DNA from: a virus
Lineage: Duplodnaviria > Heunggongvirae > Uroviricota > Caudoviricetes
IMG/VR virus record: IMGVR_UViG_2609459797_000004
Location: 1 to 32,091 of that record
Strand: one strand, 5' to 3'
Length of the DNA stretch: 32,091 nucleotides
Notes under the pieces: model-generated
Told to the model about the DNA's origin: nothing
What the model saw: only the letters and a program-made list of their open reading frames with translations
The model's database searches: none
Part shown: positions 22,935-27,478 of the stretch, in pieces
Layout of the letters: every line of letters starts with the position of its first letter
How positions within the stretch are numbered: the stretch's first letter is position 1
Position numbers and translations under genes: made by a program

Positions 22935-23651
<717 letters not shown>

Positions 23652-23682: not shown

Positions 23683-24024
23683 ATGACACAATTTCAACTT
23701 GCATTAATCGCTAGAGAAGTTGATGGAGAAGTCATCCATCTTCGCACCAAAGACGGATACATCAATGCCACCGCGATGTGCAAGTCTGCGGGGAAGCTAC
23801 TTGCTGACTATACACGACTAAAAACAACACAAGATTTTTTTGATGAATTATCACGCGATATGGGGATTCCCATATCGGAGTTAATTCAATCATTTAAAGG
23901 CGGAAGAGCAGAGAATCAAGGGACTTGGGTTCATCCAGACATCGCAATTAATTTAGCTCAGTGGCTATCTCCAAAATTTGCAGTGCAAGTATCGAGATGG
24001 GTGCGTGAGTGGATGTCAGGTTAA
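23683..24024 (+). CDS. KilA-N (APSES-like) domain protein, 113 aa, at the rex position
   Basis: AGGATGA ribosome-binding site; signature GYINATAMCKSAGK...DYTRLKTTQDF...GTWVHPDIAINLAQWLSPKF typical of KilA-N domains; co-oriented with cI. Confidence 0.7.
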   Translation: MTQFQLALIAREVDGEVIHLRTKDGYINATAMCKSAGKLLADYTRLKTTQDFFDELSRDMGIPISELIQSFKGGRAENQGTWVHPDIAINLAQWLSPKFAVQVSRWVREWMSG

Positions 24025-24063
24025 AGAGCGCCTGCCGAACTCCCTATCCACCTTAAGCGGTAT

Positions 24064-24442
24064 ATGACAAACCGAGGCAGAGTTCCTCATACGCACTTTT
24101 CTATGCTTAATGAACTGACGTTTAACTTGGTTGCGCCACTTGAACAGGCCGGATATACGCTGCCAGAAAAAATGGTCCCTGATATTTCAGAGGGTAGGGT
24201 TTTCTCGCAATGGCTCCGTGACAACCGGGGGGTTGAGCCGAAGACATTCCCAACATATAACCATGAGTACCCAGATGGCCGGACATTCCCGGTACGTCTA
24301 TACCCAAACGAATATTGCAGATTTCAAACAATACTTCAACGAAGTGTGGCTGCCTCAGTACGCTCCTAAATATTTTGCTGAACGAGACCAAAGGGCATTG
24401 ACGTTGATTGAGAAAATCATGCTACCTGACCTTGATTCCTAA
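24064..24442 (+). pseudogene. Interrupted coding region downstream of the KilA-N ORF (same frame to 24369, +1 frame to 24442)
   Basis: Frame-1 ORF 24064..24369 is separated from the KilA-N ORF by a single TAA. The protein-like C-terminal stretch that runs to the terminator is in the +1 frame (track ORF 24131..24442). May be a decayed gene or separate genes. Confidence 0.4.
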
Positions 24443-24450
24443 ATGTTATT

Positions 24451-24477
24451 CCCGGCCACAGAGCCGGGTTTTCTTTG
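24451..24477 (+). terminator. Intrinsic terminator after the cI-operon cargo
   Basis: CCCGGC-CACAGA-GCCGGG hairpin followed by TTTTCTTTG, 9 nt after the 24442 stop. Confidence 0.6.
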
Positions 24478-24628
24478 CCTCACGATCCCCCTCACCCAAG
24501 AACACATAACCAATTGTATCTATTTGAAAATAAATAGATACAACTCACTAAACATAGCAGTTCAGATCTCTCACCTACCAAACAATGCACCCCTGCAAAA
24601 AATAAATTCATATAAAAAACATACAGAT

Positions 24629-24690
24629 AACCATCTGCGGTGATGAATTATCTCTAGCGGTGTTGACATAAATACCACTGGCGGTGATAC
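24629..24690 (+). promoter_or_regulatory. Left operator OL3-OL2-OL1 with PL promoter, lambda type
   Basis: AACCATCTGCGGTGATG (OL3), TATCTCTAGCGGTGTTG (OL2), TACCACTGGCGGTGATA (OL1); -35 TTGACA at 24663..24668 and -10 GATACT at 24685..24690, directed toward the N gene. Confidence 0.8.
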
Positions 24691-24759
24691 TAAACACATC
24701 AGCAGGACGCACTACTCACCAGGGCGGTGAATATACAACGATTCGAATATGAATCTACG

Positions 24760-24774
24760 GCGCTGACAAAGCGC
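24760..24774 (+). promoter_or_regulatory. nutL boxB-like hairpin (P22-type GACAA loop)
   Basis: GCGCT-GACAA-AGCGC, about 75 nt downstream of the PL -10 and about 260 nt upstream of the N start. Confidence 0.5.
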
Positions 24775-25035: not shown

Positions 25036-25419
25036 ATGACACGCAGAACTCAGTTCAAAGGCAATTCACGTTCTCGTCGTCGTGAGCGTTTAAAGGCAAA
25101 GGCATTAGCTAACGGCGTACTGGCCCGCGAAGAAGCAATAAGTTCAGAAGTATTACACCGCCCTACTCTAAGCAGAGCGCAGATTCAGGCTAAAGGTACT
25201 CACGAAACGCCTGAGCGCAAAGAAGACGCTAAGCCAATTAAGTTCATGGCACAGGACGTGATCTGGCAACAGAAAGAATACAGACGCAATCTGGAGCGAG
25301 CGGCCATTGTGTACGCGAATGAGTTTGGACATAAGCAACCAGAAACTGGTGTATGTCTTCCAAACGTAGCCATTTACGCGGCAGGCTACCGGAAATCAAA
25401 ACAACTGACAGCGAGGTAA
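25036..25419 (+). CDS. N-type transcription antiterminator, P22 gene 24-like (127 aa)
   Basis: N-terminal arginine-rich motif (RSRRRERLKAKALA); C-terminus CLPNVAIYAAGYRKSKQLTAR matches the remembered P22 gp24 C-terminus; GGAGG ribosome-binding site. Confidence 0.75.
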   Translation: MTRRTQFKGNSRSRRRERLKAKALANGVLAREEAISSEVLHRPTLSRAQIQAKGTHETPERKEDAKPIKFMAQDVIWQQKEYRRNLERAAIVYANEFGHKQPETGVCLPNVAIYAAGYRKSKQLTAR

Positions 25420-25422
25420 GTG

Positions 25423-25647
25423 ATGAATCAGACATACATTCCATCATGCTTGAGAAATCTGCCAAAGCAGAAAGCAAAGCCCCGCAAGCAAGCCATAAAG
25501 GACGCTAAGGCAGAGGTTATTGATCAAGCAATACAATTGCTCAGGGAGGAGTTAAGAAGTGGCAAGCTCGAAGGAATGATGATTCCCTATCAGCGCGGAT
25601 ATCTATCGGCGATTAGTAAGTTGGAAGTATTGAAGAGTGAATTATGA
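25423..25647 (+). CDS. Hypothetical early protein (74 aa)
   Basis: ATG 4 nt after the N stop; basic and helical; track ORF starts at the GTG at 25420. Confidence 0.4.
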   Translation: MNQTYIPSCLRNLPKQKAKPRKQAIKDAKAEVIDQAIQLLREELRSGKLEGMMIPYQRGYLSAISKLEVLKSEL

Positions 25648-26336
25648 ACTATCTGGAATTTCCGGATGGTTCATTGTTTTGGCAGCAAACCACTTATTTG
25701 AGAGGAATTAATATGTCATCAATCCGCTTAACTACGAGAATGAAAGAGGAAATCGCTCGTAACGCTTTAATTAAGTCTGGGGTTTTCACTGAACTTGAAG
25801 AAGTAACAAAGTTAAAGAACCAGCTTGCACTTGACGCCAGAGTTATTGCGTTTGGCGGTAAAAAGAAAACTGAGGAAGTGGATCAGTTATCATCCAAGTT
25901 GGTAGCTATAAGTGAAGAACTTGGAAAGATGGGATGTTCATTTTACTCATACGATGTTCGTTCTACTTCAATTTATCTGACTGTATCTGGCAGAAGGGTT
26001 GGATGGCTTTCATATGGGAAAGACGGCAACGGCGAAGATATATTGCTCCCTGCTCCGAACGAAGATAAATGCATGTTTAGCGCAGAACACGAAATAACAA
26101 AAAGGTTTGATGAAATCTGCGCATTGCAACAAAAACTTGAAGCCAAGAAAAAGGATATCGAATCAAATGTATGGGCTGCTTTGAACTCAGTCACAACAGT
26201 TAAGCGACTTATTGAGGTTTGGCCTGAAAGCAAAGAATTGCTACCAAAAGAAGCAGATAAAGCAAGTACAGCACTTCCTGCTTTACGGGTAGAAGATTTG
26301 AATAAGATGATTGGACTTCCTTCCGAGGCCGCATAG
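25644..26336 (+). CDS. Hypothetical early protein (230 aa), function unknown
   Basis: Start overlaps the upstream stop (ATGA); an alternative internal start MSSIRL at 25713 has a GAGG ribosome-binding site; ends inside a terminator hairpin. Confidence 0.45.
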   Translation: MNYLEFPDGSLFWQQTTYLRGINMSSIRLTTRMKEEIARNALIKSGVFTELEEVTKLKNQLALDARVIAFGGKKKTEEVDQLSSKLVAISEELGKMGCSFYSYDVRSTSIYLTVSGRRVGWLSYGKDGNGEDILLPAPNEDKCMFSAEHEITKRFDEICALQQKLEAKKKDIESNVWAALNSVTTVKRLIEVWPESKELLPKEADKASTALPALRVEDLNKMIGLPSEAA

Positions 26337-26350
26337 TCGGCCTTTATTTT
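26326..26350 (+). terminator. Intrinsic terminator overlapping the end of the 230-aa gene
   Basis: AGGCCG-CATAGT-CGGCCT hairpin followed by TTATTTTTGG. Confidence 0.55.
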
Positions 26351-26468
26351 TGGCATAAACAACATAATAAACACAGCACTGTGTATTCATTCCAACGAGT
26401 GAATACACGGAGCAATGTCGCTCGTAATTAAACAGGAGCAGACTTGTTCTGATTGTTGGAAATCTTCT

Positions 26469-26497
26469 TTGCCCTCCAGTGTGAGGGCAATTTTTTT
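26469..26497 (+). terminator. Intrinsic terminator immediately upstream of the next gene's ribosome-binding site
   Basis: TTGCCCTC-CAGTGT-GAGGGCAA hairpin followed by TTTTTTT; GGAGG ribosome-binding site begins 4 nt later. Confidence 0.55.
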
Positions 26498-26509: not shown

Positions 26510-27478
26510 ATGAGTGAAGTAACAGATTTAGTTGTTATTGAAAAAGCAAATGCAATGACTGTATTTCAGTCTGCCGACCAGATTGAAGAAATCCTTCAAA
26601 AGGTTGAACGTGAAGTTATGTCCTTTGTGCCTGATATCACAACGGCAAAGGGCAGAAAGGAGATCGCTTCTCTGGCGTATAAAGTTGCGCAGACGAAAAC
26701 ATATCTCGATGGTCTTGGCAAAGACCTTGTGGCTGAACTGAAGGAAATTCCAAAGCTAATTGATGCCAACCGCAAGACAGTGCGTGATCGCCTTGATGAG
26801 CTGAAAGCCAAGGCGCGCCAGCCTCTTACTGATTATGAGGAAGAACAGGCGCGGATTAAAGCCGAAGAAGAAGCTAAGGCAGCAGCTGAAGCTCTCGCAA
26901 AGCAAATTGAGTCTGACCATGAAATAGCGATTTTGATGGATCGCGAATTTGACCGCCAAAGAGAAGAGGCAAGACTCAAAGCGGAGCAGGAAAAGCGAGA
27001 GCATGAAGAACGCTTAAAAAGAGAAGCTGAAGAGAAAGCCAGATCTGAAGCCGAAGCAAAGGCAAAAGCCGAAATTGAAGCAGCAGCAAGGCGAGAAGCA
27101 GAAGCTAAGGCCGCAGCGGAACGTGCAGAGCGTGAACGCATTGAAGCCGAGCAACGAGCACAGCGCGAAGAAAAAGAGGCAGCAGAACGAGCTGAAAGAG
27201 AAAAGCAGGCGGCAATTGAAGCAGAACGCAGAAAAGCACAGGAGGAGGCTGAACGAATCCGTCGCGAGGCTGAAGCAAAAGAGCAAGCCAGAATAGCAGA
27301 AGAAAAAAGAATCAAGGACGAAGAAGAGCGTAGAGCAAAGGATAAAGCTCACCGGAAAGAAGTAAATAACAAAATACTTGCTGACCTTATCAAGGTTGGC
27401 GCATCAGAAGATGTTGCTAAAAATATCATAACAGCCATCGTAAAAGGCGAAGTATTCGCAACAAAAATAACCTACTAA
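26510..27478 (+). CDS. Charged coiled-coil protein with TolA-like E/A/K/R-rich repeat region (about 322 aa)
   Basis: ATG at 26510 after a GGAGG ribosome-binding site; long central stretch of EAKA/ERAE-type repeats; track ORF starts at the upstream TTG at 26453. Confidence 0.5.
   Translation: MSEVTDLVVIEKANAMTVFQSADQIEEILQKVEREVMSFVPDITTAKGRKEIASLAYKVAQTKTYLDGLGKDLVAELKEIPKLIDANRKTVRDRLDELKAKARQPLTDYEEEQARIKAEEEAKAAAEALAKQIESDHEIAILMDREFDRQREEARLKAEQEKREHEERLKREAEEKARSEAEAKAKAEIEAAARREAEAKAAAERAERERIEAEQRAQREEKEAAERAEREKQAAIEAERRKAQEEAERIRREAEAKEQARIAEEKRIKDEEERRAKDKAHRKEVNNKILADLIKVGASEDVAKNIITAIVKGEVFATKITY

Follow-up and report, generated by a model that had tools for sequence, protein, structure and literature searches.

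Independent assortment of orf74 and an Nmad5-family gene in the accessory slot after N of a P22-like lambdoid phage

In the stretch of lambdoid DNA analysed here (32,091 nt, in the following termed the window), two open reading frames follow the antiterminator gene N, and the question arises whether they constitute a functional unit and what they may contribute to the phage. An earlier note had regarded them as one unit of unknown function, located where genes for host takeover or superinfection exclusion are classically found.

The PL region and the gene directly following N

The window represents a lambdoid phage or prophage that is P22-like and has lambda immunity. On the minus strand, the P22 portal, coat and injectosome proteins, terminase, lysozyme, Rz, Q, a DnaB-type helicase and replication protein O are encoded. 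Outside the interval 22.9-31.7 kb, the scan covered ten large ORFs, which represent P22-like structural, lysis and replication genes. From 22.9 kb onward, genes are found on the plus strand, which corresponds to the 'leftward' direction of lambda, in the order PL, boxB, N, orf74 and the Nmad5 gene. The features relevant to both ORFs are the following:

22938-23651, plus strand: cI repressor gene, which we take to be lambda-type, upstream of PL
24451-24468, plus strand: terminator-like hairpin between the ORFs at the rex position and PL
24663-24691, plus strand: PL promoter, TTGACA-17-GATACT, hexamers identical to those of lambda PL
24760-24774, plus strand: nutL boxB hairpin GCGCTGACAAAGCGC, read directly from the sequence
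25036-25419, plus strand: antiterminator gene N, 127 aa (Pfam N_peptide, 4.8e-15; PHROG 271, 5.2e-39)
25423-25647, plus strand: orf74, 74 aa from ATG or 75 aa from GTG at 25420, pI 9.7
25644-25682, plus strand: terminator-like hairpin with U-tract; 14-bp stem and 3-nt loop (stem-loop 25644-25674), then TGTTTTGG
25677-25702, plus strand: conserved mosaic junction TTTTGGCAGCAAACCACTTATTTGAG, unique in the window, with 0 occurrences expected by chance
25700-25706, plus strand: putative Shine-Dalgarno sequence GAGAGGA, 6 nt 5' of the Nmad5 ATG at 25713
25713-26336, plus strand: Nmad5-family gene, 207 aa, the true extent of the 230-aa ORF
26325-26352, plus strand: terminator-like hairpin with T-run (stem-loop 26325-26344), overlapping the Nmad5 stop codon; -11 kcal/mol, z only -1.45
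26469-26497, plus strand: second terminator-like hairpin with a T7 run (stem-loop 26469-26490), before the coiled-coil gene; -13.2 kcal/mol, z = -3.3
26510-27478, plus strand: gene for a 322-aa coiled-coil protein, downstream of Nmad5

The boxB sequence GCGCTGACAAAGCGC is of the type present in the nut sites of P22, and the C-terminus of N is similar to P22 gp24. The rex position is occupied by two ORFs matching parts of the BstA/KilA-N profile. No similarity to these ORFs was detected by tblastn with the BstA gene of E. coli 08A21CPO005. A promoter scan of the region found none besides PL. On the 3' side of the coiled-coil gene, the genes for cIII, kil, a PHROG 3486 protein, RecT and a Mu-Gam-like protein are located. 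Searching Rfam yielded a sub-threshold match to GcvB on the minus strand (24.5 bits versus 42), which was judged to be due to chance. The positions of PL and N confirm the statement of the earlier note that, within the PL operon, N is followed first by the two ORFs.

The smaller of the two, orf74, is a real and conserved gene. Its product, correctly described before as a basic protein of 74 aa, is matched by PHROG 5305 (E = 4.8e-38), and 41 homologues with 59-99% identity, mostly of 74 aa, are present in Enterobacteriaceae. The AF2 model is a helical hairpin (pLDDT 86) with helices at residues 21-45 and 56-73. Relatives were found neither in Pfam nor in PADLOC or the PDB, and none with a known function was detected by structure or sequence. 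The gap between the stop codon of N and orf74 is only 3 nt and no credible terminator is located between them. Therefore, orf74 should share with N the PL transcript that is produced prior to antitermination. Of 80 viral loci carrying orf74, 77 have N directly 5' of it. The gene is best described as a satellite of N, to which it is physically linked.

Extent of the Nmad5 gene and the hairpin and junction in front of it

The larger ORF (25644-26336) comprises 230 codons and its ATG overlaps the stop codon of orf74 in the sequence ATGA. The statement that its product belongs to no recognisable family has to be corrected. The Pfam profile Nmad5 (PF18757) is matched with E = 2.5e-71 and 240.4 bits, the cut-off being 27, over profile positions 1-206 of 206. 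PHROG 1965 is matched with 1.6e-82, and the RefSeq product name is 'Nmad5 family putative nucleotide modification protein'. The signature residues W170, P171, E172, E175, L176, P178, L196, N197, G201, L202, and P203 are present, at positions at least 85% conserved among 141 diverse members. Position 40 is occupied by Leu in the window protein, but by Glu in 80% of the family. The 141 aligned sequences are the full-length ones among 150 listed representatives; the family as a whole comprises 2,314 clusters (50% identity) in 1.84 billion proteins.

The Pfam match begins only at residue 27 of the 230-aa ORF, and comparison with other members indicates a shorter gene. Without exception, the 71 close homologues are stand-alone proteins with a length of about 200-210 aa and a start of the type MSSIRLT or MT.RLT (M-[ST]-x-[IV]-R-L-T), and the same applies to the 141 diverse full-length representatives. 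In lambdoid loci, all 81 matched gene copies consist of 207 codons from the same ATG, and the flanking sequence ...TTATTTGAGAGGAATTAAT immediately 5' of Nmad5 is the same in every listed context of these copies. The same length, 207 aa, is called by PGAP in E. coli PD7, which has an identical N-orf74-Nmad5 arrangement. From these data, the larger gene is real but was mis-delimited, the true start being the ATG at 25713 with its own ribosome-binding site. Of the coupled 230-aa protein proposed earlier, the ORF and the ATGA overlap are retained, whereas the length of 230 aa and the coupling are not. Ribosomes terminating at the UGA of orf74 may re-initiate at the overlapping AUG, so that some 230-aa protein could be made.

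Between orf74 and the 207-codon gene, there are 69 nt, which are made up of the hairpin and the junction sequence. The hairpin at 25644-25674 has a predicted energy of -20.8 kcal/mol (z = -4.9; none of 200 shuffled sequences was as stable), and it includes the stop codon of orf74 as well as the ATG of the 230-aa ORF. Judged as an intrinsic terminator, the structure at 25644-25682 has UGUUUUGG after the stem, only five of its 14 pairs are G-C, and the U-run is short. In lambda, tL1 sits just past N. The hairpin described here is a candidate analogue of tL1. The overall architecture is alike: PL, nutL and N are followed by a hairpin with a U-tract, through which N-modified polymerase would read. 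Unlike in lambda, orf74 is placed between N and this first candidate terminator, and would consequently be co-expressed with N. On the lambda paradigm, orf74 should be transcribed with N before antitermination and Nmad5 should need N-modified polymerase.

The hairpin is nearly invariant across 86 instances. The junction TTTTGGCAGCAAACCACTTATTTGAG precedes Nmad5 also in phages without orf74 and, in addition, at least 13 other gene families, unrelated to each other and none with a known function. In most orf74 phages, the frame beginning with ATGA has a length of only 20 codons, its TGA stop being part of the following Shine-Dalgarno sequence (GAGGTGA), and the gene after the junction has its own ATG. 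In phages without orf74 (PhiR12_1, HK542, Stx1a phages), only the junction half is kept, directly before the same Shine-Dalgarno sequence and Nmad5 start. Because the frame normally ends at this TGA and the junction half occurs alone, the 23-codon extension with its ATGA 'coupling' represents an intergenic hairpin plus junction, which in the window are open and in frame just by chance. The extension is matched by PHROG 37429, a family in which some of the members seem to be versions of another cargo gene that were over-extended in a similar way. A candidate tried and rejected was that the extension represents the 5' end of a deleted 106-aa gene; the frame usually ends at the TGA and the ATGs of the cargo genes are their own. 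The '230-aa' ORF may thus serve as an example of a hairpin-plus-junction stretch between genes being misread as a coupled N-terminal extension.

The same stretch could instead be an RNA-processing or regulatory element, or a mini-ORF of 20-23 codons (MNYLEFPDGSLFWQQTTYL...) might couple translation of orf74 to that of the next cargo gene. Such a mini-ORF would start at ATGA and usually end at the TGA which is situated in the cargo Shine-Dalgarno sequence and only a few nucleotides 5' of the cargo ATG, and its sequence is nearly invariant though it is non-coding for any known protein. However, a recent spread of the sequence, or its use as a recombination joint, would account for this invariance equally well. 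Moreover, a 1-nt deletion variant found in two loci keeps the hairpin but loses the reading frame, and the phages possessing just the junction half still express Nmad5 from the same Shine-Dalgarno sequence. This reading is considered improbable. The properties of the junction are those of the 'boundary' or linker sequences of lambdoid mosaics, 26 nt being found before at least 13 unrelated cargo genes and behind differing upstream genes. Shared linkers at module borders are the expected footprint of homologous exchange. No unusual difference from such linkers was apparent, so that the junction is a typical example and not a new kind. As a mark of a post-N cargo hotspot, it offers a compact place to seek early phage accessory functions.

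The two genes had also been described as bracketed by terminators. On the downstream side, this description holds, with stem-loops at 26325-26344 and 26469-26490. On the upstream side, it does not, as none is found between N and orf74; the strong hairpin at 25644-25674 is located instead between the two supposed partners. The hairpin at 26325-26352 follows Nmad5 in all listed variants, which account for most of the 81 lambdoid copies, and thus travels with the module. Nmad5 is a self-contained cassette of junction, Shine-Dalgarno sequence, gene and terminator-like hairpin.

Distribution of the two genes and the accessory slot after N

If orf74 and Nmad5 were an obligate two-gene unit, consistent co-occurrence in adjacent positions would be expected across genomes. 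Among 5,426 complete E. coli genomes, Nmad5 was detected in 209-211 and orf74 in 145-149, but the exact joint only in 12. About 94% of the E. coli Nmad5 genes are without orf74, and about 92% of the orf74 genes are without Nmad5. A similar picture was obtained with individual loci: orf74 is present in only six of about 80 Nmad5-bearing loci examined, with the geometry of the window in only three; Nmad5 lies within 3 kb in only six of 80 orf74-bearing viral contigs; and when the same N allele was used as the anchor, none of the 70 informative contigs contained both genes. The two genes assort independently and are not one unit. Nmad5 is not tied to one recombinase type either, occurring with Bet, Erf or RecT modules.

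These counts largely refute the notion of a translationally coupled operon with a 230-aa product acting jointly in host takeover or superinfection exclusion. The ATGA overlap is present, an open frame leads from it in phase into Nmad5, and the arrangement N-orf74-Nmad5 recurs in the 12 complete E. coli genomes as well as in three to four viral contigs, all of which would be in line with it. Against it, apart from the co-occurrence data, the N-terminal extension is absent from every homologue, the frame stops in most orf74 phages within the next Shine-Dalgarno sequence, and the hairpin of -20.8 kcal/mol encloses the AUG. In addition, PL being the only promoter found by the scan argues against expression in a lysogen. 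We regard a coupled operon as highly improbable.

Regarding the slot itself, the earlier reading proved right. On the 70 contigs with this N allele, the gene after N was that of a 156-aa PHROG 1636 protein in 32 cases, orf74 in 12, Nmad5 in nine, the gene for a 143-aa protein in about five, Ral in three, and others in the remainder. This slot is hypervariable with respect to its cargo. That it is a position for Ral-type cargo is also seen in a prophage of E. coli 1008S19, which shows 99% identity over 75% of a 4.6-kb probe (the shared parts being the cI region and the coiled-coil gene). Exactly where the window has orf74 and Nmad5, this prophage has Ral and only a remnant of N. Lambda Ral and the genes studied here are thus alike in position, Ral being the first accessory gene to follow N and, in the closely related prophage, preceding the coiled-coil gene, cIII and kil, and in being small, early and dispensable. 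They are unlike in sequence. Whereas Ral of E. coli 1008S19, used as a positive control, scored 1.6e-48 with the Ral HMM (PF11058), neither orf74 nor Nmad5 matched it at E<=1. Ral modulates type I restriction-modification, an activity that is not implied for orf74 or Nmad5.

The likeness to SieB of lambda and P22 and to other superinfection-exclusion genes of the PL operon is confined to the approximate genomic neighbourhood. No match to SieB in Pfam was obtained at E<=1 for either gene, and no defence-system HMM of PADLOC-DB v2, which covers defence but not anti-defence proteins, was matched at E<=0.1. NCBIfam contained nothing meaningful for either protein. With PL as the only promoter found, a promoter for lysogen expression was not detected, and nothing points to superinfection exclusion. 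Both genes are already catalogued in public databases, and their arrangement is ordinary lambdoid mosaicism. As a discovery, the pair of common genes carries little weight; the earlier interpretation is partly supported, being right on the slot but wrong in assuming a unit, translational coupling, terminators on both sides and the lack of a known family.

Structure, genomic context and possible function of Nmad5

The AF2 model of Nmad5 is confident (pLDDT 85). Three long N-terminal helices are followed by a small beta-sheet, a 32-residue helix and two short helices in which the WPE motif is located; a disordered linker then leads to a short C-terminal helix with L-N-x-x-I-G-L-P. Compared with BFVD, the model resembled other Nmad5 proteins only, and an enzyme-like fold was not found. 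Sequence and profile searches of all PDB chains gave nothing below E = 0.03 for Nmad5 or orf74. Conservation across the 141 diverse sequences chiefly concerns G, P, L, and W, along with R5, R43, T162, E172, E175, and N197, and no conserved set of His, Asp, Cys or Ser was present. This pattern, lacking a catalytic set, suggests a binding or adaptor protein rather than an enzyme.

Genomic context was determined for 80 diverse viral loci representing 31 Nmad5 clusters at 90% identity, with neighbouring ORFs being clustered. In about 34 of these loci, a fixed order was observed: PHROG 6784, a DUF2800 PD-(D/E)XK exonuclease, a gp2.5-type SSB/annealase (PF10991), Nmad5 and a family-A DNA polymerase, beyond which a VRR-NUC-like endonuclease is encoded. 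PF10991 is the family of Enc34 ORF6, which was shown to be an SSB; the neighbouring gene of the Nmad5 type is not mentioned in that paper (PMC5686142). In another group of the 80 loci, Nmad5 is located after an N peptide and/or an S24 repressor gene, as in the window, where it lies upstream of RecT and the Mu-Gam-like gene. Elsewhere, Nmad5 was found between ThyX and exonuclease, primase, Sak4 and SSB genes (a Schitoviridae phage), after a helicase-primase (eiAU), ahead of replication protein O, with RecT and exonuclease VIII close by (Vibrio phage Athena1), and between aGPT-Pplase1 and a thymidylate-synthase-like gene near a DNA polymerase (Yuavirus, PMC9476957). In Dhillonvirus, nmad5 is part of an inverted two-gene cassette inside the head module. 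The common denominator of these contexts points to DNA replication and recombination, not to base modification and not to host killing or exclusion.

The interpretation favoured here, with a probability of roughly 0.6, is that two independent mosaic modules occupy the accessory slot of the PL operon, Nmad5 being a putative non-catalytic accessory of replication or recombination. The first module consists of N and orf74, which should be co-transcribed before antitermination, and ends in the strong terminator-like hairpin. The second starts at the conserved junction and comprises its own ribosome-binding site, the 207-codon Nmad5 gene and its own candidate terminator; it would be read only when N carries RNA polymerase past the hairpin. 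Nmad5 may work via a conserved basic patch (R5, R43, K164/R165) together with the C-terminal WPE...LN..IGLP module, which may bind DNA or a conserved DNA-processing partner, such as SSB, an exonuclease, a polymerase or a host nuclease. The phage would be able to do without the gene, and among lambdoid phages it would belong to a large set of cargo genes that replace each other, Ral being a further choice for the slot. Taken by itself, the assignment of this class of function, optional in lambdoid phages, is made by analogy of context and is tentative, its chances being put slightly below even. The location of Nmad5 in exonuclease/SSB/polymerase modules nonetheless provides a concrete hypothesis for a large uncharacterised family (more than 2,300 clusters at 50% identity) with a reported link to Tmn defence.

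As the name implies, Nmad5 could alternatively modify DNA bases as an enzyme or be a cofactor obligatory for this process. The family owes its name to a survey in which DNA-modification systems were studied computationally (Iyer et al. 2013, as cited in PMC11846954), and the Yuavirus gene, flanked as described by aGPT-Pplase1 and the thymidylate-synthase-like gene (PMC9476957), would fit such a role. On the other hand, conserved catalytic residues and an enzyme-like fold are lacking, and most Nmad5 contexts are without modification genes. In the window, neither the PL operon nor the ten large ORFs scanned outside 22.9-31.7 kb revealed a modification enzyme. Proximity to such enzymes is what the family was named for, but its absence here does not cancel membership in PF18757, since it is a contextual feature and not a sequence criterion. 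For no Nmad5 member has a base-modification activity been reported in the literature found, and this function appears distinctly improbable.

The only experimental study of Nmad5 found in the literature deals with Dhillonvirus and Tmn (PMC11846954). There, nmad5 could be deleted and appeared toxic to clone; a single K-to-E change led to escape from the Tmn (KAP NTPase) defence, whereas the deletion did not. The DefensePredictor paper mentions NMAD domains only generically, and nothing relevant was found in the literature on mEp506/PhiR12. The escape residue K216 of PhiSMA8 aligns with R165 of the window protein, which lies within T-x-K-[KR]-L-I-x-x-W-P-E, the most conserved stretch of the family. 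One may go further and suppose that Nmad5 is misnamed, being a widespread phage replication/recombination adaptor, with a fold unseen in solved structures, that is inserted between the gp2.5-type SSB and DNA polymerase genes of many temperate phages; that alteration of its conserved basic patch (K164/R165 in the window protein) is what allows phages to escape Tmn; and that orf74 is a second immediate-early PL product; as a whole, this more specific version is possible but doubtful.

The Tmn results bear likewise on a role as counter-defence cargo unrelated to replication, in which orf74, as an immediate-early product, and/or Nmad5 would inhibit host immunity in a Ral-like manner. Ral filling the same slot in the related prophage, early expression of both genes from PL, and their patchy distribution, each being in about 3-4% of complete E. 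coli genomes, are consistent with this role. Furthermore, Nmad5 of lytic phages adjoins DNA-hypermodification cassettes, which are themselves anti-restriction devices, and mutations in Dhillonvirus nmad5 alter the Tmn outcome (PMC11846954). However, deletion of nmad5 left Tmn sensitivity unchanged (PMC11846954), and neither a Pfam likeness to Ral nor a match to a PADLOC model, of which the latter represent defence and not anti-defence, was found. In addition, the fixed position of Nmad5 between SSB and polymerase across many diverged clusters would be unusual for anti-defence genes with their fast turnover. Counter-defence as the sole role is therefore judged unlikely. 'Replication accessory' and 'counter-defence' overlap and are not cleanly separable by computation, as replication modules also hold anti-host genes.

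The Nmad5 proteins of Dhillonvirus (PhiSMA8/PhiSMS22) and of Yuavirus M6/SN1 share with the window protein the stand-alone size of about 200 aa and the signature T-x-K-[KR]-L-I-x-x-W-P-E...L-P...L-N-x-x-I-G-L-P. In Dhillonvirus, identity to the window protein is about 34% and restricted to the C-terminal half. The settings differ as well, with the PL early operon in the window, the inverted head-module cassette in Dhillonvirus, and a thymidine-hypermodification cluster in Yuavirus. The Dhillonvirus cassette fits neither a replication nor a counter-defence reading well.

Residue 40 and genomic contexts of Nmad5

In Nmad5, the 207-aa PF18757 family protein encoded at 25713-26336, residue 40 is Leu; at this position, Glu is found in 80% of 141 diverse members of the family. 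The residue is also variable among close enterobacterial relatives, where Leu, Arg, Glu or Gln are found (alignment A1). Two of the gene's arrangements in other phages are listed here.

L274:1164-7081, one of the diverse viral contigs (L254-L333): example of the fixed exonuclease-SSB-Nmad5-polymerase order
L085:3178-4297, Escherichia phage SM_A8 (Dhillonvirus): two-gene cassette of Nmad5 (254 aa) and a 104-aa gene

The first, consisting of PHROG 6784, a DUF2800 PD-(D/E)XK exonuclease, an SSB of the gp2.5/Enc34 type, Nmad5, and a family-A DNA polymerase, is present in about 34 of the 80 diverse viral loci, a replication/recombination context that is not reflected by the family name Nmad5. The Dhillonvirus cassette resembles a moron insertion in being transcribed opposite to its neighbours, the flanking portal, scaffold and capsid genes. 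No Pfam match was obtained for the 104-aa partner gene.

The cargo site after N

orf74, the gene for a 74-aa basic protein directly after N, is followed by a mini-ORF of 20-23 codons.

25644-25712, +: mini-ORF (MNYLEFPDGSLFWQQTTYL...), opened by ATGA at the orf74 stop

It is also seen in the orf74 viral loci (L089-L168), where a TGA inside the Shine-Dalgarno sequence of the following cargo gene closes it in most phages. Some of the gene calls in PHROG 37429 seem to run too far, through this mini-ORF. After the N allele of the window and the conserved 26-nt junction, the commonest cargo is a 156-aa protein.

L092:865-1335, and about 50 other loci: 156-aa protein, PHROG 1636 (MTKSWSVPFPESETE...)

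In its place, the same site can carry members of at least 11 other uncharacterised families, among them DUF7446 and a 149-aa protein (PHROG 3054) whose sequence shows visibly hydrophobic stretches. In several phages, the conserved downstream border of the slot is a coiled-coil gene, which goes by 'TolA', 'Smchd1' or 'coiled-coil domain-containing' in other annotations.

26371-26418, +: 22-nt imperfect inverted repeat, 77% complementary, 4-nt spacer
26510-27478, +: 322-aa Glu/Lys/Ala-rich coiled-coil protein, PHROG 1376

The inverted repeat sits between the two terminator-like hairpins 3' of Nmad5. A sub-threshold Rfam match to GcvB (24.5 bits versus 42) spans this area on the minus strand (26230-26430) and is probably due to chance.

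The rexAB position and the region before PL

23683-24369, +: two consecutive ORFs, 113 aa (KilA-N) and 101 aa, at the rexAB position
24451-24468, +: G+C-rich terminator-like hairpin, CCCGGC...GCCGGG, then a T-run
24514-24543, +: perfect 12-nt inverted repeat, TTGTATCTATTT/AAATAGATACAA

Judged from profile matches, the ORF pair appears to be a BstA-like gene that is split or has degenerated. The KilA-N ORF matches positions 6-121, the N-terminal part, and the 101-aa ORF positions 164-253, the middle part, of the 304-position BstA abortive-infection profile (PHROG 6287), and PADLOC reported BstA at 4.3e-12. In a near-identical prophage, the RefSeq annotation covers only the KilA-N part of the pair. 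Both the hairpin and the perfect repeat are located between these ORFs and OL/PL.
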